From IMG/VR virus record IMGVR_UViG_2541047798_000006: 41,828 nucleotides of DNA. The stretch is one strand, 5' to 3'. Below are positions 9,039 to 41,828 of this stretch, piece after piece. This stretch comes from a virus. Its lineage: Duplodnaviria > Heunggongvirae > Uroviricota > Caudoviricetes. The notes beneath the pieces are model-generated. The model had not been told where the DNA came from. It did no database searches and worked only from the letters and a program-made list of their open reading frames with translations. The position numbers and the translations under genes were made by a program. Position 1 is the stretch's first letter. Every line of letters starts with the position of its first letter.

Positions 9039-9367
9039 CAGTTCACCACCTGTTCAAACTCTGCGCTGAACTCAACACGCAACATACTGACCCGCGACGA
9101 CCATTTTGCGCAGGTCACCTTTATCTGCCGCCAGTCATAAGGCGGCGTCCACAGAAAGGCTTTCCAGCCTCCGTGCTCTGCCAGAAACGATTCCAACGCC
9201 GTGGCCTCCCAACGGGGGACAGAAATCGTCACGCTGTACGTTTTCAGGTTGGCATTCAGCCCGGCAGGCGCGCGCTGGGAATAGCCATCACCAAAGCGCA
9301 CCTTCCTGACGGAAGGAGCCGAAGCCACATCCATACCGGGTTTCACTTTCCAGCGGAAGGTTTTCAT
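9038..9367 (-). CDS. M: tail tip protein M
   Basis: 109 aa, lambda M-like. Confidence 0.9.
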   Translation of the reverse strand: MKTFRWKVKPGMDVASAPSVRKVRFGDGYSQRAPAGLNANLKTYSVTISVPRWEATALESFLAEHGGWKAFLWTPPYDWRQIKVTCAKWSSRVSMLRVEFSAEFEQVVN

Positions 9368-11863
9368 CGTCCACCTCCGGAGAACAGACCACCATCACGC
9401 ATCTGCCCGGTCACAACATCCATTGCCGCCTTGCGGGCCATGTCATACACTGCCTTCAGCATCTGTGGACCTGGCAGACCATTCGTGCCGTCGTTATTAA
9501 TCACCACATGGTTATTCTGCTCAAACTTCCCGGACGCCTGCGACCGGCTGTCCGCCAGGCTGCCCGGTGTACCGACATAACCACCGGTGGCATAGCCGCG
9601 CATCAGCCGGTAGAGATTCCCCACGCCAATCCGGCTGGTTGCCTCCTTCGTGAAGACAAATTCACCACGGTGAACAATCCCCGCTGGCTCATATTTGCCG
9701 CCGGTTCCCGTAAATCCCCCTGTCGCAAAATGGAATTTCGCCGCAGCTGCCTGAATGGCTGTACCGCCTGACGCGGATGCGCCGCCACCAACAGCACCGC
9801 CAATGGCGCTGCCGATACTCCCGACAATCCCCACCATTGCCTGCTTAAGCAGAATTTCTGTCATCATGGACAGCACGGATCGGGTGAAGCTGCGCCAGTT
9901 TTGTTCACTGCCGGTCAGCATCGCCGCCATATTCTGTGCAATACCATCAAAGGTCTGCGTGGCTGCACTTTTAACCTGCGACATACTGTCCGTGGCGCTC
10001 TCTTCCCACTCACTCCAGCCTGACTTGAGGCCTGCCATCCAGCTCCCGCGAAGCTGGTCTTCAGCTGCCCAGGTCTTTTTCTGCTCTGACATGACGTTAT
10101 TCAGCGCCAGCGGATTATCGCCATACTGTTCCTTCAGACGCTGTTCCGTGGCGTCCCGCGCTGCCTGCCGGTCAGTCAGCCCCCGGTTTTTCGCATCAAT
10201 GGCTGCCCGTTTTGCCCGTTGTTGCTGTGCGAATTTATCCGCCTGCTGCGCCAGCGCATTCAGGTGCTCCTGATACGTGACCTTATCGCCAAGTGCAGCC
10301 AGCTGGCGTTTGTACTCCAGCGTCTCGTCTTTATGCGCCAGCAGGGATTTCTCCTGTGCGGACAGCTGGCGACGTTGTGCCGCCTCCTCCAGTACCGCGA
10401 ACTGACTTTCTGCCTTCCACAAATCCCGGCGCTGCTGGCTGATTTTCTCATTCGCTGTCTTCCTGACGATCGCCCGCAGACACCTTCACGCCGGACTGTT
10501 TCGGCTTTTTCAGCGTCGCTTCATAATCCTTTTTCGCCGCCGCCATCAGCGTGTTGTAATCTGCCTGCAGGATTTTCCCGTCTTTCAGTGCCTTGTTCAG
10601 TTCTTCCTGACGGGCGGTATATTTCTCCAGCGGCGTCTGCAGCCGTTCGTAAGCCTTCTGCGCCTCTTCGGTATATTTCAGCCGTGACGCTTCGGTATCG
10701 CTCTGCTGCTGCGCATTTTTGTCCTGTTGACTCTGCTGTTCAGCCTTCTTTCGGGCGGCTTCAAGCGCAAGACGGGCCTTTTCACGATCATCCCAGTAAC
10801 GCGCCCGCGCTTCATCGTTAACAAAATAATCATCCTTGCGCAGATTCCAGATGTCGTCCGCTTTCTTAAACGCAGCCTCTGCCTTAATCAGCATCTCCTG
10901 AGCGGTATCAGGACGACCAATATCCAGCACCGCATCCCACATGGATTTGAATGCCCGTGCTGTCCTGTCTGCCCAGGTTTCCAGCGTGCCCATGTTCTCT
11001 TTCAGGCGTCGGGTCTGGTCATCAAACCCTTTCGTTGCGGCCTCGTTCGCCGCCTGCAATGCCCCGGCTTCATCGCCGGAACGCTGCAACTGAGCAACAT
11101 ACGCAATCTGCTCCGCCGTCACGTTATGGAACTGGCGCGCCATCGCCGTCAGCCCCGACGTCGGGTCAGTGGTCAGCTTCCCGAAGGCTTCAGCGACCTT
11201 GTCCACCTCCACACCGGATGCAGAGGAGAAACGCGCCACACTCTGGCTGATGGACGCAATCTGAGCCTCACCGCTTACCCCCGCCTTAACCAGTGCACTG
11301 AGTGACTCGCTGGTCTGGTTAAACGTCAGCCCTGCAGCCTGCCCGGCTCTGGACAGGACCAGCATACGATCTGCCGTCAGTCCCGCCTGATTACCGGAAA
11401 GGACCAGCGTTTTGTTGAAATCGGACAGGGTTGAGTTACCCTGATACCAGGCATACGCCAGCGCACCGGTCGCCACCGCCAGCGAGGTGGCCCCGACCAT
11501 CGGCAGGGTGATCGCACCGGCAAGCCCCCGGAACATGGGGATCATCCCGCCGAAGGAGTCCTTAACCTGACCACCCTGTTGCAGCAGGATCAGCCACGGG
11601 CTTTGCCCGCCTGCAAGCTGCGTGGCCACGTCGGTGAACTGTGCAGGCAGCATACGCATGGCGGCTTTATACTGCCCGACGGAAATCCCCGCTTTCTGTG
11701 CAGCCAGCGCCTGTCGGCTCAGCGACTGTTCAACGACTGCCGCTGTTTTTTTCGCATCACTTTCCGTACCGGAAAAATGACGCCTGACTCTGGCCATCTG
11801 CTCGTCAAATCTGGCCGCATCCAGACTTAAATCAACGACCAGATCGCCTACCGGTTCAGCCAT
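9364..11863 (-). pseudogene. H: tail tape measure protein H, split into two reading frames
   Basis: N-terminal piece 10448..11863 (471 aa, ends TGA at 10448) and C-terminal piece 9364..10422 (352 aa, TTG-initiated in the ORF track) are both lambda-H-like but in different frames; the second frame is open upstream to 10485. Confidence 0.7.
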
Positions 11864-22210: not shown

Positions 22211-22432
22211 TGTTCATTCCACGGACAAAAACAGAGAAAGGAAACGACAGAGGCCAAAAAGCTCGCTTTCAGCACCTGTCGTTTCCTTTCTTTTCAGAGG
22301 GTATTTTAAATAAAAACATTAAGTTATGACGAAGAAGAACGGAAACGCCTTAAACCGGGAATTTTTCATAAATAGCGAAAACCCGCGAGGTCGCCGCCCC
22401 GTAACCTGTCGGATCACCGGAAAGGACCCGTA
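22211..22432 (-). other. cos region (cosB, cosN, lambda right-end junction)
   Basis: + strand aggtcgccgccc at 22388-22399 is the reverse complement of the lambda 12-nt cohesive end GGGCGGCGACCT, followed by the reverse complement of the lambda right-end sequence. Confidence 0.85.
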
Positions 22433-23607: not shown

Positions 23608-24072
23608 TTATCTGAGGCATTGCTCTCGAATGTATAGCTGTGCCCCTTCAAGTTGTTTTTGCATTATTATCAGTCGCGCTCTGAGGGTGAAATAATCCCG
23701 TTCAGCGGTGTCTGCCAGTCGGGGGGAGGCTGCATTATCCACGCCGGAGGCGGTGGTGGCTTCACGCACTGACTGACAGACTGCTTTGATGTGCAACCGA
23801 CGACGACCAGCGGCAACATCATCACGCAGAGCATCATTTTCAGCTTTCGCATCAGCTAACTCCTTCGTGTATTTTGCATCGAGCGCAGCAACATCACGCT
23901 GACGCATCTGCATGTCAGTAATTGCCGCGTTCGCCAGCTTCAGTTCTCTGACATTTTTGTCGCGCTGGGCTTTGTAGGTAATGGCGTTATCACGGTAATG
24001 ATTCAGCCACAGACTAAGCGCACCACAGGCCACCAGCAGGGCAATGATGACCACGCACAGTACGCGGTTCAT
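23608..24072 (-). CDS. Rz: i-spanin Rz
   Basis: 154 aa ...[45 protein letters not shown]... Confidence 0.95.
23670..23852 (-). CDS. Rz1: o-spanin Rz1 lipoprotein, embedded in Rz
   Basis: 60 aa, lipobox VVGC, proline-rich. Confidence 0.85.
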
Positions 24073-24073
24073 T

Positions 24074-24172
24074 TCACCACCAGCGTATCTGACCGATGAA
24101 ATAACCGGAGGCCATAATCACAAACACCAGCCAGATAAGAATGAACTTCCAGGTGGATAATTTTTCAGCCAT
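24074..24172 (-). CDS. candidate 32-aa single-pass membrane peptide translationally coupled to Rz
   Basis: ATG at 24172 preceded by GGGAG SD; [32 protein letters not shown]; TGA one nt before the Rz ATG; not in the ORF track (<60 aa). Confidence 0.3.
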
Positions 24173-24247
24173 CACTCGAATCTCCCGAATCAGTTTGCTA
24201 AAATCAAACACACTTTCTCCTTTGACTTTTCCGGAGTCAGGAAACAC

Positions 24248-24280
24248 AAAACCCCGCTTGGTGCCAACAAACGGGGTTTT
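24248..24280. other. strong stem-loop in R–Rz spacer
   Basis: aaaaccccg ... cggggtttt 9-bp perfect stem, 15-nt loop. Confidence 0.5.
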
Positions 24281-24370
24281 TACTTTTATTCACTTACGTT
24301 TCGCCACTTCGCAGGATTTCATGTTATCCGCCCGCGTGGCCATGCCTTATTTTTCAGCAAAATATTCTGC

Positions 24371-24904
24371 TTATCTGTCGATACCCCAGCACGCCAGCGC
24401 GCTCTCCTGGTCACGACGGGATACCTGACCGTAGCAGTTGTTTGAACGAATACGGCAGTCTCTGCCACCGTCCTTAATCCACCAGCGAATCGCCTCACAC
24501 GCTCCCCTGCGATCACCTGCATTAATTCGTTTGTAAAACGTCGACGGGAAACACTTACCGGGACCAATGTTGTACGGACAGAATGACGCGATCCCCGCTT
24601 TCTGGGGTTCGCTCAATGGCACTTTGATGTTTTTCTCCACCCATGCCAGCGCCTTATCACGCTCAATGGCGTTGACCTGGTCGCATTTTTCCTTCGACAG
24701 TTTCATACCGGGAAAAACGGGTTTTCCATCCACCATCGTGGCCCCCCGACAGATGGTCCAGTTGCCGGAACCATCGCGGTATGCCGTTGTGTGGTTACCC
24801 TCTTTTTCGTCCAGAAACTGGTCAAGTATCTGAGGAGCAGACGCGCCTGCAGCAATCAGCGCCAGAACAGCAGCTGACAGGCCGTATTTGATTTTTACGC
24901 TCAT
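24371..24904 (-). CDS. R: phage lysozyme (GH24, T4-lysozyme fold) with N-terminal signal/SAR-like hydrophobic segment
   Basis: E-x8-D-x5-T catalytic spacing in EGNHTTAYRDGSGNWTI; N-terminal YGLSAAVLALIAAGASAP. Confidence 0.85.
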   Translation of the reverse strand: MSVKIKYGLSAAVLALIAAGASAPQILDQFLDEKEGNHTTAYRDGSGNWTICRGATMVDGKPVFPGMKLSKEKCDQVNAIERDKALAWVEKNIKVPLSEPQKAGIASFCPYNIGPGKCFPSTFYKRINAGDRRGACEAIRWWIKDGGRDCRIRSNNCYGQVSRRDQESALACWGIDR

Positions 24905-24997
24905 GGATATTTATCAGGATGCTACCAATGAAAGATACTGGAAAGCCAACTGCAAAAAGCTAACAACCTGTAATCGAGTTATCAGAACTGTTAATTT

Positions 24998-25258
24998 TTA
25001 TGGTATACCGCGCCTCTGAACAGGGGCGCGTTTCTGGCAACAGCTCGTCCCCTTCACATAACCCGGCAGCAACATCCAGGAAGACCTGGCTGCTGCCTCA
25101 TAAAACTCCAGCGCGGCACCTTCAACACGGTCCAGCGAGATGTCCAGGTCAAAAATTTCACCGTCAAAGCGTTTTTTGTCCCGTAACGCTAAAGTTACCG
25201 TAACTTTATTCTCAAAATTGCGGATCCCTTTCACAATCAGTTCATAGTTTTGAGTCAT
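24998..25258 (-). CDS. small protein between holin and endolysin (possibly YdfR/DUF1327-like, maybe C-terminally altered)
   Basis: 86 aa MTQNYELIVKGIRNFENKVTVTLALRDKKRFDGEIFDLD...; GGAG SD directly after the S stop; family from memory. Confidence 0.45.
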   Translation of the reverse strand: MTQNYELIVKGIRNFENKVTVTLALRDKKRFDGEIFDLDISLDRVEGAALEFYEAAARSSWMLLPGYVKGTSCCQKRAPVQRRGIP

Positions 25259-25262
25259 TGAA

Positions 25263-25478
25263 TTACTCTCCCCGTGCCGCCTTACGACGGTCCTCTCTGA
25301 TTTTGAAATACAGGTTAGTCAGATATGTCAGCAGCCCAAACAGCAGACTCCCCAGCACGCCTATTGCCGCCCACTGAGACGGGGAAACCCTGTCCAGCAA
25401 CTGCAGGAACCAGTAGCCCGTTCCCACCGCTGACGTAGTGTATGACACACCTGTTGTGATTTTTTCCATCTGGTCCAT
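25263..25478 (-). CDS. S: pinholin, phage 21 S-type, dual-start
   Basis: 71 aa [71 protein letters not shown]; two Met codons at positions 1 and 4; GGGAG SD. Confidence 0.85.
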
Positions 25479-25785
25479 ACCCCGTCTCCCGTTATCCGGA
25501 AGCTGACAACAATAAAAAAGCCACCAGTTAACTACTGATGGCTCTGATAACTCATGCAAGCGTCTCAGACGATCCACTGACACTATCGGTGAGTTTAACG
25601 ATACCTTCCATTTGACTGGCTCACTTTTTATGATGATGCCGGTGCATTTATCTCCAGCACCAGACTTTCTATCTCAACGCCATACGTTGCATTTTTGGTA
25701 ATATCCGTCAGCGTCAGTGCATTTAGTCCCACTGCCAGACTGTCTTTTATGGCCTGGAATGCCGGGCCAGTACGATGACGTAGTA

Positions 25786-25989
25786 TCACTCCGGCTCAGT
25801 TGCACCGCTGACCACCACATCACCTTCTGCTGCAATCGCCTGCATCAGGGTATAAGGGGTTATGGCCACCGGACTACCAAACGGCTGCCAGCCCTCTTTC
25901 AGTTTATGTGTCAGCTTTTCCGCAAGATCTGACGGCGGCGCCGCCCTGACAACATCATAGTGTTTAAATGCCATGGTTCTTTCCACCAT
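25786..25989 (-). CDS. small hypothetical protein upstream of lysis cassette (possibly DUF1737-like)
   Basis: 67-aa ORF ...MAFKHYDVVRAAPPSDLAEKLTHKLKEGWQPFGSPVAITPYTLMQAIAAEG... Confidence 0.45.
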   Translation of the reverse strand: MVERTMAFKHYDVVRAAPPSDLAEKLTHKLKEGWQPFGSPVAITPYTLMQAIAAEGDVVVSGATEPE

Positions 25990-26234
25990 CTGAAAAATAA
26001 TTCTTTAAAATGCCTGACATGTAATACAGAAAAAAACACAAAACCATACCTTAAATAAAAACCTGATTATCAAGCAGATATGCATGGATAAACTACAAGA
26101 CGAGATATAAACCACCCTGTATTTAAATAAACAATAAACAACATCAGAAAAATAATTCTGCTCTATGGTTTAATTCAAAAATATCATTTATACTTTTCAG
26201 AACATCACCAGCAAGGCATAAACAAGGAAAGTAA

Positions 26235-26570
26235 ATGAAGTGGATTGTGATTGATACAGTTATCCAGCCATCATGCGGAATATCTTTTTCAGTCATATGG
26301 AGTAAAATAAAATTAATAATCTGGTATCAATCGGATGCTTTCTTACCTCCTGAAAGTATATTTACACTGACTCACACAGGCATCATGCTCAATAACAAAG
26401 TGCTGCCTGTAACCATTTACAACGTAGTACCATTCAATAAAACATTCTGGAATTTAATCAAAAACAGCCAGGAATGCCCTACAAATACAGATAACGTATT
26501 GAATGAATGCTTTAATAACCGTTGCACTCTGCAAATATGTCCTTATGGACTAAAACAACAAAGTCCATAA
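26235..26570 (+). CDS. hypothetical AT-rich cargo protein, Cys-rich C-terminus
   Basis: 111 aa, AAGGAAAG SD 4 nt upstream of the ATG; opposite strand to late transcription; very low GC. Confidence 0.5.
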
Positions 26571-26604
26571 GGAGTTTACTCACATCTGACAAAATCAATA
26601 TAAA

Positions 26605-26626
26605 CAGCCCCTCCGGAGAGGGGCTG
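26605..26626. terminator. candidate bidirectional terminator hairpin between convergent cargo ORFs
   Basis: cagcccctc-cgga-gaggggctg 9-bp perfect stem. Confidence 0.45.
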
Positions 26627-27017
26627 GAGAGTGGCGCTATGTGCCATTGCATGGTGCCGGGTGCCTCCCGGTGAATTCAGTACCAGCACCTGAATCCGCG
26701 ATTATCCCATATACCTACTCGCTGATTGCCCCACCGCACAGGGGGATTCACCATGCCAGTTTCTTTTAACAAACTCCCCGCAAACCAGACAACAGTCAAC
26801 CGCCTGAATTGTGAAGTATTTAAAAATTTCTCCCGCTAACTGATACCCGGCTAACAGTCTGGCGTTTTCTTTTTCAGCAACGGGAAAGCAACAACCACCA
26901 CACCCGCCACCAGCACACCGTCAGCCAGCACTGACATTATCCGGCTGCTGCAATGCCATTCACAAAAACAGTAAGCAATCACTTTTTACCGTAACAGGTG
27001 ATAATCCAGATATGTAT

Positions 27018-27371
27018 CTACCCCAGATGAGTAATCCGAAGTTCATCCATACCACAGGTCCTGGCTATTCTGTTGTACTCCTGAACAAGAGCAAATAATT
27101 CTGAATTAGCAACCATGAACTCATCGCAAACCCTCTGTATAGCATCACTATTCAGAATAATAACGTCTCTTCCCGAAAGACGATCAGGAGTACAGAACAA
27201 AACTGTCAAACGGCTGAAGGCCTTTGCTCGTGCTGCATTGACTATATCAATACGCTGCCTAAGGATGAAACACCCCGACGCCTCATCAATATTCACTCTA
27301 CCCACACCATATGAATGATAAATATTTAATGCTGAAAAAACCATTAGACCGTATAACAAATATTCAATCAA
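27018..27371 (-). CDS. hypothetical AT-rich cargo protein
   Basis: 117-aa ORF (TTG in ORF track; in-frame ATG at 27344 gives 108 aa); no recognisable family. Confidence 0.4.
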   Translation of the reverse strand: MIEYLLYGLMVFSALNIYHSYGVGRVNIDEASGCFILRQRIDIVNAARAKAFSRLTVLFCTPDRLSGRDVIILNSDAIQRVCDEFMVANSELFALVQEYNRIARTCGMDELRITHLG

Positions 27372-27481
27372 TACTTAACAGAACTTTTATTTTTGACAAA
27401 CATATAATATTTTCAACAATATCCTGAGCCAGGTATATTTCAGTATAAGGCTCTGCCGGAAGGAATCTGGAAGAATGAATA

Positions 27482-27558
27482 TGGCGCGCTGTACTGGATT
27501 CGAACCAGTGACCGATTGCTTAGAAGGCAATTGCTCTGTCCGGCTGAGCTAACAACGC
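27482..27558 (-). tRNA. tRNA-Arg (anticodon UCU)
   Basis: 77 nt; acceptor GCGTTGT/ACAGCGC, T-loop GGTTCGAATCC, anticodon loop CTTCTAA, 3' GCCA. Confidence 0.85.
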
Positions 27559-27571
27559 TGAATACCGATAA

Positions 27572-27652
27572 TGGACCGCCATCGGGGACCCGCCCCCCGC
27601 ACCAACAACCCTGTTATCGTGTCGTCTGCTCTTCCTGATAAGCTAATGGCGG
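27572..27652 (-). other. degenerate tRNA-like element between the two tRNAs
   Basis: acceptor CCGCCAT/ATGGCGG with T-CCA tail, D-stem GCTT/GAGC, T-stem CGGGG/CCCCG, but non-canonical T-loop GGCGGGT and no foldable anticodon arm. Confidence 0.3.
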
Positions 27653-27659
27653 TTTGTGA

Positions 27660-27735
27660 TGGTGGCCCTTGCTGGATTTGAACCAGCGACCTGGCGATTA
27701 TGAGTCGCTCGCTCTCACCACTGAGCTAAAGGGCC
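27660..27735 (-). tRNA. tRNA-Ile2-like (anticodon CAU; could be read as Met)
   Basis: 76 nt; closely resembles E. coli ileX from memory; anticodon loop CTCATAA. Confidence 0.85.
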
Positions 27736-27771
27736 GGGAGCAGAATAATAACGGTCCATAATTAATTCCGC

Positions 27772-27800
27772 AATAAAAAACCCGCTCGGCGGCGGGTTGT
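27772..27800 (-). terminator. tR'-like intrinsic terminator downstream of the late promoter
   Basis: - strand cccgc-cgccga-gcggg followed by TTTTTTATT. Confidence 0.6.
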
Positions 27801-27845
27801 AGAAACTCTTCTAACGTCAGGCATAAAACGCCCATCATTATGACG

Positions 27846-27873
27846 AATTTACCACAGATTCCGGAAAAATCAA
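27846..27873 (-). promoter_or_regulatory. candidate late promoter pR' (qut region) directly after Q
   Basis: - strand TTGATT, 16-nt spacer, TAAATT; position matches lambdoid late-operon architecture. Confidence 0.4.
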
Positions 27874-27878
27874 CCTTG

Positions 27879-28700
27879 TTACCTAGTTACCTTTTTTAAC
27901 TGCCGCTCAGCCCATGCTTCTTCAATATCAAACCGGGTCACCAGCGCATCATAGAATTTCTTAACTGTTTTTTCCCATGACGCGCGTGTTATCTGGTTTG
28001 TCACCTCGCATATAGCATTAAATGCCTCCGTTGATGGTAGTCTTTCATAGCCACGACCACCACAACGCTGGCAGTCTCTGATAACAGGCATACCACGTTT
28101 TACCGACTCTTCACGATGAATGGCGACACCACGCCCACGGCAATCCTTACAGGCGGTGGAAACCTCACCCTTTCCGCCACACTCCGGACAGGCAACTTTT
28201 ACCACCTCCCTGACTTTTTTCCATTCTTCCCAGTAAGACGGATACACACCTTTCGTACACTTTGCCCATACCGGCGGCTTACCATCCGGATACTGGACCT
28301 TGTTTGTAAAAACTACGCTTTCAATAAATTTTTCCCCATAGCAACAAGGGCACTGCTTTTTACTCGCTGCGCTGCGGGCATAATCCTCAAAAGCGTACGA
28401 AGCCATAATGCGCATCACTAACGGTTTTATTTCTGCCGGAAGTTTTCTCAACGCCGCCACACGATCGCACCGACTGAGTGCATAATCTGCCAGTAATTCT
28501 GTTGCCCGCGCCCTGTCATTCATACTGATGCCCATTTTCCCCAGGAACGCAGAAAACCCCATCTCAGCCCGATTCTGTGTCATGCCCTGCGCGGCCATCA
28601 CATCAGTGATACTCAGCGCATCTTTTGACGTTGAGGCCGATACATCGGTCAGGCCAGGGGATTTTGGGGAGTAGTATTTCGGTAAATCTTCCAGTTTCAT
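27879..28700 (-). CDS. Q: antitermination protein Q (zinc-finger, phage 82/QuuQ-like)
   Basis: 273 aa with CPECGGKG, CKDCRGRG, CQRCGGRG motifs; sits upstream of pR'/tRNAs/lysis genes. Confidence 0.75.
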   Translation of the reverse strand: MKLEDLPKYYSPKSPGLTDVSASTSKDALSITDVMAAQGMTQNRAEMGFSAFLGKMGISMNDRARATELLADYALSRCDRVAALRKLPAEIKPLVMRIMASYAFEDYARSAASKKQCPCCYGEKFIESVVFTNKVQYPDGKPPVWAKCTKGVYPSYWEEWKKVREVVKVACPECGGKGEVSTACKDCRGRGVAIHREESVKRGMPVIRDCQRCGGRGYERLPSTEAFNAICEVTNQITRASWEKTVKKFYDALVTRFDIEEAWAERQLKKVTR

Positions 28701-29071
28701 TTTTTGACCTGCTCTTCATGCATTATGGGGTAAATCTTCACCCCCATACGTCCACCAGATACTGGCTGACCACGAACGATATTGATTTCATCAAACTGCT
28801 CATCGTCCATTAACACTCCCGCATGCGTCAGCGCATCCAGCGGTGCTTTCAGGATATTGTCCAGGTCGCGACGACGCTTATCCGGTGGCTCTGCAATCAC
28901 CTTTATCGCCAGCCTTCCGGACAGGCTTAATTTCAGCCGCTGCTGGCGAACAATAAGCGCCACAGCCCGGCGATAACGCTTTCCCTCCTCCGAGATAAAA
29001 TATGTGCTGCCACGGCGTCGCCAGTAAGTGTTCACCGTCGGCGGGTAAGGTAAAACCAAATCTATGAGCAT
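28697..29071 (-). CDS. rusA: Holliday junction resolvase RusA
   Basis: 124 aa ...LPYPPTVNTYWRRRG...PDKRRRDLDNILKAPLDALTHAGVLMDDEQ. Confidence 0.85.
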   Translation of the reverse strand: MLIDLVLPYPPTVNTYWRRRGSTYFISEEGKRYRRAVALIVRQQRLKLSLSGRLAIKVIAEPPDKRRRDLDNILKAPLDALTHAGVLMDDEQFDEINIVRGQPVSGGRMGVKIYPIMHEEQVKK

Positions 29072-29083
29072 CAGTCACCTCTT

Positions 29084-30133
29084 TTACCCAAGCACGCCAG
29101 TTGCAAAGGCGTGATCAAGAAAACGAAAAATTAAATCAACCTGAGAACCATGCTTTTGTTCGAACGCCAGAGGATCCGCATGAAGCTCGTTGTGATGCTC
29201 CCGACACAGCGGTAGCGTGAAAATATCGTGAGATTTTGTCCCCATTCCGCCCTGACCATGACCAATCAGGTGATGGGGATCGTCGGCTGGCTTACCACAA
29301 CACGCACACGGCTGTGTCTTCACCCAGCGTGTGTATTTCTCGTTAACCCAGCGGCGACGTTTAGGTCGTTTCATGAAAGATTCCGGAGACTCAGGATCAA
29401 CGGCAATGCTGACCACCGTCTTTTCCTGTGGTGGGTTCTGTTGCTGGTGGGCGTGAGGCAGCGGCGCAATATTTTTTGTGCGCTGTTTCAGTATGCTGGT
29501 GGCGGTCTGCTCTCCCGGTACGATGTCGCTTTCACGGTACATTGAGCGGATTTTTTCCGCACGCAACCCCAGCGAACGACGTAATACCGCTTCCGGTAGC
29601 GCGTCCGCCACCTGATTGCGGACCGCCCACCAGGATAATTCAGCCAAAGATAATTCACGCTCCTGCGTACCGCTTATTGCGTGACCGATGACGTCAATCA
29701 TCCATGCTGACAGGTTTTGATGAGCAAGTTGCCCGAGTGATTCGGATGTCTGGTCACGCAGCTGGTTGTCGCAGTGCCAGCACAACACCATTGCGCCGGT
29801 ACCATAACGGTGAATGACGGTTTCGCTGTGATGATAATCGCCGTGTGGCCACTGGCAGGATTTAATATGGCGCAACAGCCAGTCAGACAATGCACCAGCA
29901 CCACCAGCAGCACGAATTACCCGTGCGTTACTGAAAAACGGCAGCAATGTTTTGTCTTCCACCAGCGGCTGGCGAACGGCAGGAACGACCCCGGACGGCA
30001 GATTACGCATGCTTTTCGGTTCCGGCTCCACCAGTAGCCGGGTATTGTGGAATACCGGCATGGATTCACGGCCCGGCTTAACGATCACCAGCCCGAGTTC
30101 CGGTACCAGAACAGGTCGAAGTAATACCCGCAC
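29084..30133 (-). CDS. DUF968/YdfU-like protein with C-terminal HNH-like Cys/His cluster
   Basis: 349 aa; C-terminus CACCGKPADDPHHLIGHGQGGMGTKSHDIFTLPLCREHHNELH; GTG start. Confidence 0.6.
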   Translation of the reverse strand: MRVLLRPVLVPELGLVIVKPGRESMPVFHNTRLLVEPEPKSMRNLPSGVVPAVRQPLVEDKTLLPFFSNARVIRAAGGAGALSDWLLRHIKSCQWPHGDYHHSETVIHRYGTGAMVLCWHCDNQLRDQTSESLGQLAHQNLSAWMIDVIGHAISGTQERELSLAELSWWAVRNQVADALPEAVLRRSLGLRAEKIRSMYRESDIVPGEQTATSILKQRTKNIAPLPHAHQQQNPPQEKTVVSIAVDPESPESFMKRPKRRRWVNEKYTRWVKTQPCACCGKPADDPHHLIGHGQGGMGTKSHDIFTLPLCREHHNELHADPLAFEQKHGSQVDLIFRFLDHAFATGVLG

Positions 30134-31650: not shown

Positions 31651-32295
31651 TTAACCACAGATGATATTGAAACGTTCTCCGGAAATCTTGACCATAATGT
31701 CAGACAGTTCGCTGACGGCATGGGCTTCAGATGATCCCAGAGCGTCAGGCTGAACAGCTATTACCGAAGCTCCACTTGCCAGCCCTGCTTTTATACCCGC
31801 AGATGCATCCTCAAATACCACGCATTCACCAGGCTCAAGGCCCAAAGCCAAAGCTGCTTTGATGTAACCCTCGGGACTTGGTTTTCCCGTCATTACATCT
31901 TCTGCACACACCATTACTATGGGTAAGGGGAGATTAGCCGCTTTCATCCTGTTTTCTGCAAGCATTCTGCCTGCAGAAGTGACAAGTGCCCAGCTATCCG
32001 GTGGCAGTTTTGATAAGAGTGCAGCGGCCCCTTTTACTTCAGTAACGCCTTCTGTCATGTTGATTTCAACCTCTTCGAGTGAGGCCGCGATTTTATTGGT
32101 TTTCTCACCTGCACCAATAAAATGCGTCAGTGTATCAATCGTTTGCCGCCCGTGTGCGTAAGCAATCACAGCCTGAGTATCAAGACCGTATTCTGCACAA
32201 AAATCTCTCCAGACGCTTTCCACTACGGCTGTTGAATCAACCAGCGTACCGTCCATATCGAATAAAAAACCCTTAGCGTTGAATATCATTGCCAT
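31651..32295 (-). CDS. HAD-superfamily hydrolase (phosphatase-like)
   Basis: 214 aa, DxDGTL-type motif FDMDGTLVDS near the N-terminus. Confidence 0.8.
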   Translation of the reverse strand: MAMIFNAKGFLFDMDGTLVDSTAVVESVWRDFCAEYGLDTQAVIAYAHGRQTIDTLTHFIGAGEKTNKIAASLEEVEINMTEGVTEVKGAAALLSKLPPDSWALVTSAGRMLAENRMKAANLPLPIVMVCAEDVMTGKPSPEGYIKAALALGLEPGECVVFEDASAGIKAGLASGASVIAVQPDALGSSEAHAVSELSDIMVKISGERFNIICG

Positions 32296-32318
32296 TCCTT
32301 AATGGTTGCAGAAGAAAG

Positions 32319-32957
32319 TTAATCAAACCATGTTTTTTCATCACCTTTCGCTACTCTCAGGCTGACAGCAATCTGCTCAGGCACAATTCTTGAAAGCGAC
32401 AATTCAGGCAGGTCGTTGACATCAAAAAAATCAGCATCGAGTGACTCATGGCTGATTGACAGGCTGCCACCTACTTCTTCACAGAGAAAAATCAGCTTGT
32501 AAACATGCCAGGGTAAAGGCGGATGGCCGTGAAGATTACGATCCCAAACTCCCAATAGTTTAGTCACTCTGACTTTTAATCCGGTTTCTTCTTCGACTTC
32601 TCGACGCACAGCTTCAGAAGGTGTATCTCCAACATCTGCCCATCCGCCAGGAAGACTCCATAATCCATCTGCAGCCTCTTTCACCATCAGAATACGATTA
32701 TTACGCAGGATAAACGCACGCACATCTGTTTTGGGCGTCGCGTAACCCGTTTCCGATACATGAAACAAATCATTGCGGCTAATATCAAACTGCGAACTCA
32801 GCAGTCCAGCGGCAATTTCACGCAAGGCTTCATAGCGTTCCTTGTCAAAGACGTCTTTTGAATAGGTCAGGCCTGACTGCGCGAGGGCCTTTAGTCTCTG
32901 GGCAACAAAAATAAGCTTTTCTTGGGTCAACACTTCAGACATGTTTTTCATCTTCAT
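32319..32957 (-). CDS. NUDIX hydrolase with N-terminal extension
   Basis: 212 aa; Nudix box GGWADVGDTPSEAVRREVEEETGL; 23 nt upstream of the HAD gene on the same strand. Confidence 0.8.
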   Translation of the reverse strand: MKMKNMSEVLTQEKLIFVAQRLKALAQSGLTYSKDVFDKERYEALREIAAGLLSSQFDISRNDLFHVSETGYATPKTDVRAFILRNNRILMVKEAADGLWSLPGGWADVGDTPSEAVRREVEEETGLKVRVTKLLGVWDRNLHGHPPLPWHVYKLIFLCEEVGGSLSISHESLDADFFDVNDLPELSLSRIVPEQIAVSLRVAKGDEKTWFD

Positions 32958-37140: not shown

Positions 37141-37198
37141 TTTCTGGTGACGTTTGGCGGTATCAGTTTTACTCCGTGACTGCTCTGCCGCCCTTTTT
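37141..37198 (+). ncRNA. dicF: DicF sRNA (ftsZ-targeting)
   Basis: tttctggtgacgtttggcggtatcagttttactccgtgactgctctgccgccctttttaa matches the DicF sequence from memory. Confidence 0.8.
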
Positions 37199-37372
37199 AA
37201 AGTGAATTTTGTGATGCGGTGAATGCGGCTGAGCGCACGCGGAACAGTTAAAACCGAAAACTGTGTTATGGGTGGATTCTCTGTATCCGGCGTTAATTGT
37301 TAACTGGTTAACGTCACCTGGAGGCACCAGGCACCGCATCAACAAAGTTCATTTGTAAAAATGGAGATAATT

Positions 37373-37594
37373 ATGATTGCTCATCACTTCGGAACTGATG
37401 AGATTCCTCGTCAGTGCGTGACTCCCGGTGATTATGTTATTCATAAAGGAAGAACATATATTGCTTCGGTAAACAACATTAAAAAACAACGGCTCTATAT
37501 TCGTGATTTTTCCACACAACACTGTATTAAGGAAACCATGATTAAAGTCTTCCTTGGTCGTGATGGTTTACCTGTAAAAGCAGAGTCATGGTGA
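37373..37594 (+). CDS. hypothetical small protein in the dicB position
   Basis: 73 aa from the ATG at 37373 (GGAGA SD); not similar to DicB as remembered. Confidence 0.5.
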
Positions 37595-37717: not shown

Positions 37718-40192
37718 ATGAGTAAAGTCTTTATTTGCGCCGCCATTCCTGACGAACAGGCAATTAAGGAAGAAGGTGCAGTTGCTGTAGCCACTGCCAT
37801 CGAAGCTGGTGACGAACGCCGCGCCCGAGCCAAATTTACCTGGCAATTCCTGGAGCAATATCCGGCTGCTCAGGACTGTGCTTATAAATTTCTTGTCTGC
37901 GAGGATAAACCCGGCATGGCCCGCCCTGCCCTTGATTCCTGGGATACCGAATATATGCAGGAAAACCGCTGGGATGAGGGATCGTCTTCCTTTGTCCCGG
38001 TCGAACCAGAGCCGAATACAGAAATTGTTAACTTTAATCAGTTATCCGACGACAAACAGGCCGCTGTTCTCGTTAAGTTTGGCGCACATGAAAACGTCAC
38101 CGTGGATATGGTCATCAACGCAAGCGGGCTTCTTGGCGATGACGACATGATGACCTTTGACGGACACCTCGCAGAGGCAATTATCCGGACTAAAGAAATT
38201 AACGCCATGTATCCGGAACGTCAGATTGAATACATCAACGATGCCAGACGTGATTTAAAACCAACCGCCAAATGGCCCGACGTTCAGGCATATTTTCTCG
38301 ACCGTAAAAAACGCATGGAAAAGGAGCGCAAAGAAGGTGGTGCATATGCTTCTGTTGTTGATCTTGCCCGTGCCAGCGTCAACCGGCAGAACACTGAAAA
38401 CTCAGTAGCAAAAATCAACCCTGTCACTACTGCCATTCGTCGCGAATACAAGCAGACATGGAAAACACTGGATGATGAACTGGCCTATGCTCTGTGGCCT
38501 GGGGACATTGATGCCGGAAACATTGACGGCAGCATCCATCGCTGGGCAAAAAATGAAGTTATCGACAACGACCGCGAAGACTGGAAGCGTATCTCGGCAT
38601 CAATGCGCAAACAGCCTGATGCCCTTCGCTACGACCGCCAGACTATTTTTGGCCTTGTCCGTGAACGTCCGATCGACATTCACAAAGACCCTGTGGCACT
38701 GAACAAATACATTACTGAATACCTGACTACAAAGGGCGTGTTTGAAGATGAAGGAAGAAATCAGAGCGCAACTGATACTCTCTCGTCGCCAGTACCAGAA
38801 ACTGATGCAGTGGAAACGGCAATTCCGGACAACGAAAAAACCGAATGCAAAGTGGAAATCGAACCATCTGTAGAGCGTGAGGGGCCGTTCTACTTCCTCT
38901 TCACCGACAAGGATGGCGAAAAATACGGTCGCGCAAACAAACTTTCTGGTCTGGATAAGGCACTGGCTGCCGGGGCTACTGAAATCACGAAAGAAGAATA
39001 TTTCGCCCGCAAAAACGGTACATACTCAGGTTCACAACAAAATACTGGTGCATCTGACACGACCGCACAACCAGAGCCGGTAAAAGTTACCGCTGACGAA
39101 GTAAACAAAATTATGCAGGCAGCCAATATCAGCCAGCCTGACGCCAATCAGCTGCTTGCAGTATCACGTGGTGAATTTGTTGCAGGGATTAGCGACCCGA
39201 ACGATCCGAAATGGGTGAAGGGGATTGAAACCCGCGATTCTGTGAACCAGAACCAGCAAGAAACGGAACAGAACGACCAGAAAGCGGAACAAAACAGCCC
39301 AAATGCGTTACAAAACGAGCCAGAAACGAAACAACCTGAGCCAGTAGCGCAACAGGAAGCGGAAAAAGTCTGCACCGCCTGTGGTCAGACCGGCGGCGGC
39401 AACTGCCCTGATTGTGGTGCGGTGATGGGCGACGCAACATACCAGGAAACATTCGATGAAGAGAATCAGGCTGAAGTTCAGGAAAATGATCCGGAGGAAA
39501 TGGAAGGCGCTGAACATCCACACAAGGAGAATGCTGGCAGCGCTCAGGACCACGCCAGCGATAATGAAACTGGCGAGACGGCAGATTCCTTAATTGCGGT
39601 GAACGGTCATCACGTTATCACATCCACCAGCAGAGTGTGGCACCATCTGATGATCGACCTTGAAACGATGGGAACAAATCCTGATGCGCCAATCAACTCT
39701 ATTGGCGGTAAATTCTTTGATCCCGAAACCGGAGAGATGGGGCCGGAATTTAGCAAGACCATCGATCTGGATACTGCTGGCGGAGTCATTGATCGTGACG
39801 TCATTAAATGGTGGCTTAAGCAATCACGCGAGGCGCAATCTGCCATTCTGACCGATGAAATCCCGTTAGATGATGCACTACTGCAATTGCGGGAATTTAT
39901 CGACGAAAACTCCGGTGAATTTTTTGTTCAGGTCTGGGGAAATGGAGCCAACTTCGACAACGTGATTTTACGCCGTTCATACGAACGGCAGGGGATCCCC
40001 TGCCCGTGGCGTTATTGCAACGATCGCGATGTGCGCACAATCGTTGAGCTGGGAAAAACCCTGAACTTCGATGCCAGAACGGATATTCCATTCGACGGTG
40101 AGCGCCACAATGCACTTGATGACGCCCGTTACCAGGCAAAATACGTTTCAGCTATCTGGCAAAAACTGATCCCGAGTCAGGCTGATTTTTAA
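37718..40192 (+). CDS. large early-region protein with C-terminal DEDDh (DnaQ-like) 3'-5' exonuclease domain
   Basis: 824 aa; motifs MIDLETMG, WGNGANFDNVILR, HNALDDARYQ; central CTACGQTGGGNCPDCG zinc ribbon; acidic/Gln-rich linker. Confidence 0.7.
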   Translation: MSKVFICAAIPDEQAIKEEGAVAVATAIEAGDERRARAKFTWQFLEQYPAAQDCAYKFLVCEDKPGMARPALDSWDTEYMQENRWDEGSSSFVPVEPEPNTEIVNFNQLSDDKQAAVLVKFGAHENVTVDMVINASGLLGDDDMMTFDGHLAEAIIRTKEINAMYPERQIEYINDARRDLKPTAKWPDVQAYFLDRKKRMEKERKEGGAYASVVDLARASVNRQNTENSVAKINPVTTAIRREYKQTWKTLDDELAYALWPGDIDAGNIDGSIHRWAKNEVIDNDREDWKRISASMRKQPDALRYDRQTIFGLVRERPIDIHKDPVALNKYITEYLTTKGVFEDEGRNQSATDTLSSPVPETDAVETAIPDNEKTECKVEIEPSVEREGPFYFLFTDKDGEKYGRANKLSGLDKALAAGATEITKEEYFARKNGTYSGSQQNTGASDTTAQPEPVKVTADEVNKIMQAANISQPDANQLLAVSRGEFVAGISDPNDPKWVKGIETRDSVNQNQQETEQNDQKAEQNSPNALQNEPETKQPEPVAQQEAEKVCTACGQTGGGNCPDCGAVMGDATYQETFDEENQAEVQENDPEEMEGAEHPHKENAGSAQDHASDNETGETADSLIAVNGHHVITSTSRVWHHLMIDLETMGTNPDAPINSIGGKFFDPETGEMGPEFSKTIDLDTAGGVIDRDVIKWWLKQSREAQSAILTDEIPLDDALLQLREFIDENSGEFFVQVWGNGANFDNVILRRSYERQGIPCPWRYCNDRDVRTIVELGKTLNFDARTDIPFDGERHNALDDARYQAKYVSAIWQKLIPSQADF

Positions 40193-40261
40193 TGTTCAAC
40201 CATCGCCGGTTGTAACTGGTATTCTGCAACCGGCGCTCATCTGAAGTAAGAGATAAAAGCA

Positions 40262-40513
40262 ATGAGCGAAGTAGTCATGATTGTCTCTCCCGGTAAATGG
40301 GTATCCGAAGAACAGCTAATTGCACTGAAAGGAATAAAAAAGGGAACGCTAAAAAAAGCCAGGGAAAAATCGTTTATGGAAGGAAGAGAGTATAAGCATG
40401 TCGCCCATGACTGTATGCCATGGGATAACAGCCCATGCTTTTACAACCTGGAAGAAATTGACCGCTGGATTGAGCGCCAGGCATTAGCAAGACCAAGACG
40501 CCATCTTACTTGA
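40262..40513 (+). CDS. xis: excisionase-like small protein
   Basis: 83-aa ORF immediately upstream of the integrase. Confidence 0.45.
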   Translation: MSEVVMIVSPGKWVSEEQLIALKGIKKGTLKKAREKSFMEGREYKHVAHDCMPWDNSPCFYNLEEIDRWIERQALARPRRHLT

Positions 40514-40547
40514 CTAAAAGCCACACTAACCAATGAGAGAAGCTGAA

Positions 40548-41828
40548 ATGAAATATCCGACAGGCGTGGAAAACCATGGAGGGAAATTGCGTATCTGGTT
40601 TGTTTATAAAGGTGTAAGAGTCAGAGAAAATCTGGGGGTTCCTGACACGGCAAAAAACAGGCGCATTGCAGGTGAGCTGCGCGCCTCTGTTTGTTACGCA
40701 ATAAAAACTGGTGTTTTCGACTATGCAAAACAGTTTCCCTCCTCACACAATCTGGAAAAATTTGGTGAGGCCCGACAAGATTTAACCATAAAGGAACTGG
40801 CTGAAAAATTTCTGGCACTGAAAGAAACGGAAGTCGCAAAAACGTCACTCAACACGTACCGTGCCGTCATCAAAAATATTCTGAGCATAATCGGTGAAAA
40901 AAATCTTGCATCGTCGATTAATAAAGAAAAATTGCTGGCGGTACGTAAAGAGTTACTTACTGGATACCAGATCCCCAAAAGTAATTATATTGTTACGCAA
41001 CCGGGGAGATCGGCTGTCACCGTAAATAATTACATGACAAATCTTTACGCCGTGTTCCAGTTTGGTGTTGATAACGGTTACCTGGCAGATAATCCGTTTA
41101 AGGGGATCTCGCCATTAAAGGAATCAAGAACCATTCCTGATCCTCTTTCACGGGAGGAATTTATCCGTCTTATCGACGCCTGCAGGAATCAGCAGGCCAA
41201 AAATTTATGGTGCGTTTCTGTTTATACAGGCATTCGCCCTGGTGAGCTGTGCGCGCTTGGCTGGGAGGACATAGATCTGAAAAATGGAACAATGATGATC
41301 AGAAGAAATTTAGCAAAAGATCGTTTTACGGTACCGAAAACACAGGCTGGTACCAATCGGGTAATTCACCTTATCAAGCCTGCAATCGACGCTCTCAGGA
41401 ATCAGATGACACTAACGAGGCTGAGCAAAGAGCATATTATTGACGTTCACCTCAGAGAGTTTGGCAGAACAGAAAAACAAAAATGCACCTTTGTTTTTCA
41501 ACCTGAAGTGTCAGCGAGAGTAAAAAATTATGGTGACCATTTTACCGTTGACTCAATAAGGCAGATGTGGGACGCAGCGATAAAGCGCGCTGGCCTCCGC
41601 CACCGCAAATCATATCAGTCGAGACATACTTATGCCTGCTGGTCGCTGACAGCCGGTGCCAACCCGGCATTCATAGCAAACCAGATGGGACATGCAGATG
41701 CGCAAATGGTGTTTCAGGTATACGGGAAATGGATGTCTGAAAACAATAATGCACAGGTAGCCCTGTTAAATACACAGCTAAGCGAGTTTGCCCCAACCAT
41801 GCCCCAAAACAAGGCGACGCAAAATTAA
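40548..41828 (+). CDS. int: tyrosine site-specific integrase
   Basis: C-terminal catalytic region ...HRKSYQSRHTYACWSLTAGANPAFIANQMGHADAQMVFQVYGKW...; ends at the window edge. Confidence 0.9.
   Translation: MKYPTGVENHGGKLRIWFVYKGVRVRENLGVPDTAKNRRIAGELRASVCYAIKTGVFDYAKQFPSSHNLEKFGEARQDLTIKELAEKFLALKETEVAKTSLNTYRAVIKNILSIIGEKNLASSINKEKLLAVRKELLTGYQIPKSNYIVTQPGRSAVTVNNYMTNLYAVFQFGVDNGYLADNPFKGISPLKESRTIPDPLSREEFIRLIDACRNQQAKNLWCVSVYTGIRPGELCALGWEDIDLKNGTMMIRRNLAKDRFTVPKTQAGTNRVIHLIKPAIDALRNQMTLTRLSKEHIIDVHLREFGRTEKQKCTFVFQPEVSARVKNYGDHFTVDSIRQMWDAAIKRAGLRHRKSYQSRHTYACWSLTAGANPAFIANQMGHADAQMVFQVYGKWMSENNNAQVALLNTQLSEFAPTMPQNKATQN

Follow-up and report, generated by a model that had tools for sequence, protein, structure and literature searches.

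A RecE-type scaffold with a predicted DEDDh exonuclease head in a lambda-like prophage of Escherichia coli

What kind of enzyme is encoded at the position where lambdoid phages carry their recombination exonucleases when no annealase gene stands beside it, and within which recombination pathway would it act? The question is raised by a gene at positions 37718-40192 (+ strand) of the IMG/VR virus record IMGVR_UViG_2541047798_000006, a stretch of 41,828 nucleotides from a virus of the class Caudoviricetes, the whole of which is hereafter called the window. The gene is complete, its open reading frame (ORF) coinciding exactly with these positions; its ATG start codon is preceded, at a distance of about 10 nt, by a GAGG ribosome-binding site, and the product of 824 amino acids (aa) is identical to RefSeq WP_021538002.1, which is named 'exonuclease'. 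Judged by sequence comparison, this product is a RecE-family chimera, in which the RecE scaffold is retained and its PD-(D/E)XK 5'-3' nuclease head is replaced by a DEDDh 3'-5' exonuclease head.

The DEDDh head and the RecE-type scaffold

The catalytic head belongs to the Rv2179c/DexA family and occupies aa 642-814 (positions 39641-40159, + strand), where the profile PF16473 (Rv2179c-like 3'-5' exoribonuclease domain) is matched with E=2.2e-63 and 213.6 bits, against a cut-off of 27, and is covered over its whole length (1-177 of 177). The motifs that a sequence-only reading of this stretch had described as DnaQ-like, namely DLET (647-650), WGNGANFD (740-747), and HNALDDA (797-803), are all present within it, and the catalytic five, D647, E649, D747, H797, and D802, are intact. 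In alignments with stand-alone phage homologues and T4 DexA, these residues correspond to D7, E9, D119, H186, and D191 of DexA and are invariant in the six sequences. The PDB sequence match of the head is likewise T4 DexA (8kel_A), with an identity of about 24%. DexA, which aids double-strand-break repair in intron homing and whose structure has been solved (PDB 8KEL; PMC12153337), and Rv2179c of Mycobacterium tuberculosis share the PF16473 family and the five equivalent catalytic residues with the head; both are small stand-alone enzymes, whereas here the domain forms the C-terminus of an 824-aa protein, and it lacks the extra loops of DexA and its W152/D169 pair.

The same reading had placed the catalytic domain outside the lambda-Exo/RecE fold, and this also holds: a Pfam search of the 824-aa protein gives no match to PF12684, which K-12 RecE matches at 615-850, and the C-termini of the two proteins give no alignment in BLASTP. 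The head is thus predicted to be a DEDDh 3'-5' exonuclease, and the label 'exodeoxyribonuclease VIII' on DEDDh-headed proteins misdescribes their catalytic domain.

The remainder of the protein can be divided into modules, for which an AlphaFold2 model of residues 1-480 (mean predicted local distance difference test score, pLDDT, 75) gives four confident units (approximately 1-100, 105-222, 245-340, and 388-435) separated by disordered linkers. Module A, the YdfE-type N-terminal region (aa 1-257; 37718-38488, + strand), is modelled as an alpha/beta domain (about 1-100) followed by a helical domain (about 105-222), and has 68% identity to K-12 Qin ydfE, a pseudogene truncated by IS2. The core of module B (aa 245-340; 38450-38737, + strand) is helical, with pLDDT of about 88-93, and is common with RecE at approximately 278-340, as indicated by BLASTP and the PRK09709 model. 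It is followed by a domain designated d4 (aa 385-440; 38870-39037, + strand), with a modelled beta-beta-alpha-beta-alpha fold (pLDDT about 86-90), the motif GPFY..GRANK..EI[ST].EE[YH].ARK.G, and 19 invariant columns among 11 diverse relatives; its low ratio of nonsynonymous to synonymous substitution rates (dN/dS) is given below. Module C (aa 479-627; 39152-39598, + strand) is a linker defined by its DNA and protein identity to recE/RecE. It contains a C4 zinc ribbon at aa 552-566 (39371-39415, + strand; C552xxC555...C563xxC566) and an acidic tract at aa 567-627, with 33% acidic and zero basic residues in the stretch 561-600, in agreement with the zinc ribbon and long acidic linker that had been noticed ahead of the catalytic domain.

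The relationship to RecE is strongest over this linker. In BLASTP, aa 263-627 align to RecE 278-592 (E=2e-61), and the identity rises to about 80% against RecE 458-592, over the zinc ribbon and acidic linker, while DNA similarity to K-12 recE is confined to 39153-39594 (78% identity) and stops 15 codons ahead of the DEDDh domain. The NCBIfam equivalog model for RecE (NF007259, PRK09709) reaches 275 bits, against a cut-off of 1269, over aa 241-626 only, and PF06630 (Exonuc_VIII), found in K-12 RecE at 2-178, is not matched in the 824-aa protein. Compared with RecE of the Rac prophage, therefore, the protein likewise has a nuclease head at the C-terminus of a long scaffold, the zinc-ribbon/acidic linker is nearly identical, and the gene occupies the same early-left slot between kil and xis; the differences are the polarity and fold of the head, the YdfE-type N-terminus in place of PF06630, the d4 domain, which is without counterpart in the BLASTP alignment to K-12 RecE, and the genes recT, ralR, and rcbA, which do not follow the exonuclease gene here.

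The kind of element is already catalogued, in RefSeq (under the names 'exonuclease' and '3'-5' exonuclease' for this protein), in PHROG 2082, which is matched along the full length of the protein, and in PF27430/PF27432, and it was described as a class in 2025; the gene itself recurs with its annotation, at 100% DNA identity, in E. coli CU37RT-2. A literature search turned up no study devoted to this protein. The present analysis adds an explicit module map, the predicted association of one scaffold with nucleases of opposite polarity and with Rad52 and RecT annealases, and an argument from individual residues against an HREX-type function.

Heads carried by relatives of the scaffold

The distribution of the scaffold was surveyed by searching aa 1-630 against 1.84 billion cluster representatives, which yielded 237 relatives, and by mapping modules with phmmer and hmmsearch on 61 representatives of at least 450 aa. 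The N-terminus of the scaffold comes in two alternatives, YdfE-type or PF06630, and the C-terminal position is occupied by several kinds of domain. A PD-(D/E)XK head is present in 15 of the 61 representatives, a DEDDh head in 8, a Rad52-like head in 18, and a RecT head in 1; a tail without identified relation was found in 10, and no head was detected in the remaining 9.

The Rad52-like assignment was reached indirectly, as this third head gave no Pfam match in the fusions first scanned and PDB sequence searches were also empty. It carries a motif that we took to be Rad52-like, and this assumption was then put to the test. PF04098 was matched in 15 of 28 stand-alone relatives of the head (best score 28.4 bits, cut-off 20.3), the annotation of one phage homologue names a RAD52-like annealing protein, and an AlphaFold2 model of the head (pLDDT 90.7) gave human RAD52 for all of its top 14 PDB matches, with E=3e-8 and probability 1.0. 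On the strength of these results, the third head is predicted to be a Rad52-fold annealase. The scaffold is therefore fused to Rad52-fold and RecT annealases in addition to nucleases, which places the 824-aa protein among phage recombination modules. It would follow from the predicted heads that lambdoid phages have exchanged nuclease polarity on an otherwise conserved RecE scaffold, one that also carries annealases.

Gene neighbourhoods vary with the head, but the d4-motif search returned nine genome loci, so that the link between head type and neighbours is drawn from a small sample. At the one PD-(D/E)XK-headed locus examined, the next genes are one for RecT (PF03837, E=3e-44), ralR, and rcbA; the four Rad52-headed loci have a Gam-like/Gp157 gene in that place, an arrangement also seen in phage ZF40. 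ZF40 gp07 (L009:2714-4879) and its relatives of PHROG 2489 have the A/B/d4 scaffold and the early-left operon position in common with the 824-aa protein, and differ in their Rad52-fold annealase head and in the Gam-like/Gp157 gene next to it. Together with ZF40 gp07, the proteins at loci L016-L019 and the representatives P0141, P0144, P0147, and P0162 combine the scaffold with a predicted Rad52-fold annealase and are annotated 'exonuclease' (PHROG 2489/7838), a label that would hide the annealase. In a survey of 325 lambdoid phages (Zheng et al., Genome Res 2025; PMC12315714), ZF40 is listed without an annealase and 'RecE-2' proteins of unknown role are mentioned; these are probably scaffold-annealase fusions of the ZF40 type.

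Some further observations concern the same set of relatives. The models PF27430.1 and PF27432.1 are precomputed for the 824-aa protein and presumably cover scaffold modules, and PF27430.1 is also found on some Rad52-headed relatives. A fourth C-terminal tail, seen in P0127 (aa ~455-702) and nine other representatives and assigned to PHROG 26058, has no Pfam match. In P0198 (703 aa), the RecE N-terminal domain and linker are fused directly to a RecT domain (PF03837, E=1e-42), which represents either a recE-recT deletion or an additional head type.

A nuclease-only module in a Chi-rich prophage

The prophage is lambda-like, is 100% identical to a region of CU37RT-2, and lies between sitD and rspB, which is the site of Qin in K-12. 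The order on the + strand is a dicA-like repressor, DUF1391, ydfB, sieB (on the opposite strand), DicF, a dicB remnant, kil, the exonuclease gene, xis, and int. The DicF small RNA (sRNA; 37142-37193, + strand) is recognised by Rfam RF00039 (76.7 bits; gathering score 48), the truncated dicB remnant is at 37264-37347, and kil, the gene for an FtsZ inhibitor (37373-37594, + strand; PHROG 294 and the Prokaryotic Genome Annotation Pipeline, PGAP), lies directly 5' of the exonuclease gene. As had been noted from the sequence, the next genes are xis, encoding the excisionase (40262-40513, + strand; no intervening gene), and int, encoding a tyrosine integrase (40533-41828, + strand), both given by the ORF listing and PGAP; the stop codon of int is the end of the window. 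A scan around the exonuclease gene found promoter-like sites less often, and terminator-like sites about as often, as in shuffled sequence. With no signal above chance, expression with the early-left operon is inferred, and the gene would share its dicB/kil transcription unit with DicF. Two observations may be added on this region. The intact DicF with a truncated dicB, and the position of kil, rather than dicB-ydfD, ahead of the exonuclease gene, form a Rac/Qin hybrid of the division-inhibitor region. The 69-bp gap between the exonuclease stop and the xis start contains, at 40204-40235, a 9-bp inverted repeat (CGCCGGTTG ... CAACCGGCG, 14-nt loop) with no T-run after it.

The exonuclease gene is the only recombination-module gene of the prophage. 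No gene of the RecT, Bet, Erf, Rad52, or Sak4 type is present in the PGAP annotation of the whole prophage, no annealase emerged when those ORFs of the early region whose function is unclear were scanned against PHROG, and neither source contains a recognisable anti-RecBCD, Gam, or single-stranded DNA-binding protein (SSB) gene, although the small genes DUF1391 and YdfB might conceivably encode novel RecBCD inhibitors. The DEDDh-headed relatives inspected comprise Tritos, mEp460_ev081, vB_EcoS-689R5, loci in E. albertii, E. ruysiae, and Shigella, and three further E. coli loci. Nine intact loci share the order dicB-ydfD/kil, exonuclease, xis-int (one further Shigella locus is degraded), an order that also holds at the three E. 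coli loci, whose attachment sites differ, and no annealase partner was found in any inspected relative. Among stand-alone homologues of the head (N15-like YDC107_1, Redjac, and Enc34), no adjacent annealase was detected by Pfam in regions that are mostly unannotated. The lambda Red and RecET systems differ in this respect, as their modules contain a cognate annealase gene. The sequence-only reading had likewise seen no RecT/Bet-like gene and had suggested a nuclease acting by itself. Neither a C-terminal alignment to RecE or lambda Exo nor a nearby annealase was found, and the absence of a cognate annealase extends to the inspected relatives; the picture of an isolated nuclease needs revision, however, in that the protein is a RecE-family chimera whose scaffold is elsewhere fused to annealases.

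The distribution of Chi sites bears on the pathway with which such a module would be combined. A single exact match to the lambda-type cohesive end, cos (GGGCGGCGACCT; 22388-22399, - strand), sets the right end of the virion DNA and identifies the top strand of the phage as the minus strand of the window; the small terminase subunit gene nohD is just below it. The window has nine Chi sites, against 1.43 expected from composition, a number reached in 0 of 100 shuffled sequences. Seven are on the top strand, and are thus read by RecBCD entering the right cos end, and two are on the bottom strand (29443 and 29495). Six of the seven in active orientation (24030, 24077, 24479, 26907, 29901, and 29959, together spanning 24030-29966 on the - strand) lie 1.6-7.6 kb from the right cos end; if seven sites were placed at random, at least six would fall within this 18% of the length with a binomial probability of about 2e-4, by our own arithmetic. 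The remaining one, GCTGGTGG at 39624-39631 (- strand; active orientation), is within the exonuclease gene at the linker/head junction (codon 636) and recurs at the corresponding codon in each of the six relatives compared, among them one whose N-terminus differs. Its conservation could follow simply from that of the TSTS peptide, or it could have to do with the head swap. Eight of the nine sites are in the lysis/Q/DUF968 region beside cos, whereas the head and tail genes, which take up 22 kb, are free of them, and some occur as pairs about 50 bp apart (24030/24077, 29901/29959, and the opposite-orientation pair 29443/29495).

These features correspond to a class defined in the survey mentioned above. 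The 'Tritos' type (PMC12315714 Table 1, class B) is described there as having a nuclease only, with no annealase, SSB, or anti-RecBCD gene listed, and is represented by four phages; top-strand Chi sites are numerous in each of them and, in three, clustered at the right end. The Tritos protein has 823 aa, with 80.4% aa identity over its full length and PF16473 at 642-813. Its gene stands in the order dicB-ydfD-exonuclease-xis-int, and the nuclease-only module without annealase or anti-RecBCD gene and the right-end top-strand Chi sites are as in the present prophage, which differs in being probably defective and in having kil with a truncated dicB upstream instead of dicB-ydfD. Given a nuclease only, no anti-RecBCD gene, and oriented Chi sites clustered at the right end, the prophage fits the Tritos-type nuclease-only, Chi-rich class. 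A related case is phage LLS, which was studied experimentally in the survey, is classed there as being without a Rec module, and grows better with RecBCD (PMC12315714). Its gene 34, directly before xis and labelled a DnaQ-like exonuclease by the authors of that survey, encodes a stand-alone homologue of the head with 57% identity, from which the scaffold, unlike in the 824-aa protein, is wholly absent.

Possible functions of the protein

The reading favoured here, to which we give roughly even chances, is that the protein is an accessory for the processing of DNA 3' ends in phages that rely on host RecBCD and RecA, and not one half of an exonuclease/annealase pair. On induction or infection, the gene would be transcribed together with dicF and kil as part of the early-left operon, which is under repressor control. 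The scaffold would deliver the DEDDh head to recombination intermediates or to the ends of phage DNA, where the head would remove single strands with a 3' end, whether by the trimming of 3' tails and flaps or by the conversion of 3' overhangs into blunt ends for the loading of RecBCD. Strand exchange would be left to the host RecBCD-Chi-RecA pathway. RecBCD requires blunt or near-blunt ends. The proposed end processing draws on the analogy with DexA in double-strand-break repair during intron homing, and membership in a nuclease-only, Chi-rich class suggests cooperation with host RecBCD and RecA rather than isolated activity. The gene is in addition a candidate for the RecBCD/Chi-dependent growth strategy recently described for LLS and its relatives.

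Several considerations weigh against this proposal. Nine Chi sites in 41.8 kb are close to the E. coli chromosomal average of about one per 4.6 kb; the signal lies in clustering and orientation and not in the count. The link between a DEDDh nuclease and RecBCD dependence is an association, and specificity for DNA or RNA is not readable from sequence; the PF16473 family includes the exoribonuclease Rv2179c, and PGAP often names the protein '3'-5' exoribonuclease'. According to the survey, 3'-5' exonucleases acting on single-stranded DNA usually inhibit RecA-dependent recombination (PMC12315714), so that a helper role is not self-evident. Fold searches with the N-terminal scaffold returned nothing, and a 2023 review calls the function of RecE's own N-terminal region unknown (PMC11611040). 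Finally, the tape-measure gene (9364-11863, - strand) is split into two ORFs and marked 'frameshifted' by PGAP, and truncated dicB, DUF1327, and DUF1737 genes are also present, which suggests a defective prophage, albeit one with an intact exonuclease gene; this copy may therefore never act.

Resection in the 3'-5' direction could also serve a two-component recombination system of reversed polarity, in which the annealase is provided in trans by the RecT, Bet, or Erf protein of another prophage or by a host factor. E. coli genomes contain several lambdoid prophages, with head DNA in up to seven copies per genome, nuclease genes that the survey labels DnaQ-like are packed tightly with annealase genes, for example in epsilon34 (PMC12315714), and the scaffold itself is fused to Rad52-fold and RecT annealases in relatives. 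We nevertheless regard this arrangement as unlikely, since the inspected DEDDh-headed genes have no adjacent annealase and an invariant context, Tritos and mEp460_ev081 were isolated as virions, for which a resident prophage is not to be relied on, and lambda-type exonuclease/annealase pairs need specific protein contacts (PMC11611040). A function outside recombination is offered by anti-phage exclusion of the HREX/EcD type, by which DNA of superinfecting T-even phages containing 5-hydroxymethylcytosine (5hmC) would be degraded and the lysogen shielded. EcD is an E. coli-borne homologue of DexA; the head shares one Pfam family with DexA and, like EcD, has intact catalytic residues. EcD is reported to degrade 5hmC DNA selectively, to digest T4 DNA but not unmodified DNA, to protect from T4 when expressed from a plasmid, and to keep the residues for 5hmC recognition (PMC12153337). 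In the head, by contrast, DexA W152 is replaced by Cys and D169 by Thr in an alignment of 24% identity, in which the W152 column is anchored by the invariant P148, D156, and R158 and the D169 column is less certain. DexA D90, a tetramerisation residue whose loss defines the EcD-like state and which is Ala in the stand-alone EcD, is retained here as Asp. The gene also belongs to an early-left operon that is repressed, promoter-like signals around it do not rise above chance, PADLOC models give marginal DEDDh matches only (E at least 5e-4) with no system assignable, and the fusion to a RecE scaffold would be left unexplained, all of which makes exclusion of this type quite improbable.

An exoribonuclease acting on the DicF-containing early-left transcript or on host RNAs, in host take-over or sRNA maturation, would be in keeping with the founder of PF16473, Rv2179c, which the Pfam description gives as a 3'-5' exoribonuclease, with the PGAP name, and with the presence of DicF in the same operon, 0.5 kb before the exonuclease gene. 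Against this, DexA, which is the nearest relative among characterised phage proteins, is a DNA exonuclease, the scaffold otherwise occurs only with DNA-recombination heads (PD-(D/E)XK, Rad52, and RecT), and the gene occupies the canonical slot of the Rec module as drawn in the survey (PMC12315714), so that we assign a low probability to a role in RNA processing. That the gene is a decaying recE remnant without function, having lost recT and the nuclease domain, is scarcely credible, even though the tape-measure gene of this prophage is frameshifted and several other genes are truncated, the K-12 counterpart ydfE is a pseudogene disrupted by IS2, and the Shigella copy is fragmented. Among the 120 closest protein clusters listed, almost all are full-length (799-828 aa), all catalytic residues are kept, and the gene occurs in isolated phages. 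Comparison with four relatives of 80-85% identity gives a dN/dS of about 0.3 for the whole gene, with lower values for the head (0.23-0.25) and for d4 (0.05-0.10). Of 5426 complete E. coli genomes, 4050 (about 75%) contain the head DNA, and the collinear kil-exonuclease-xis-int block occurs in 1901 genomes. The exonuclease gene is thus maintained and not a relic, with decay limited to individual copies such as K-12 ydfE and the Shigella locus; the head DNA of a gene with a putative recombination function is in this way carried, often in multiple copies, by about three quarters of complete E. coli genomes.

The proposal of a RecBCD-dependent accessory can be extended to the scaffold as a whole, an idea that we put forward tentatively and consider doubtful. 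The scaffold (module A or the RecE N-terminal domain, module B, d4, and the zinc-ribbon/acidic linker) might be a general delivery module that tethers different heads to one shared target in the cell, for instance DNA ends, the replisome, SSB, or RecBCD, the DEDDh version being a RecBCD helper that prepares 3' ends for Chi-dependent concatemer formation in phages no longer equipped with an annealase and Gam of their own. If this were true, it would account for the long-unexplained N-terminal two-thirds of RecE.

One observation lies apart from the recombination module. Adjoining genes for a NUDIX hydrolase and a HAD-family hydrolase (31651-32957, - strand), between a Ren-like/DUF977 gene and hokD, are cargo in the replication/nin region; a putative dNMP phosphatase is also carried by phage LLS, in its early-left operon.

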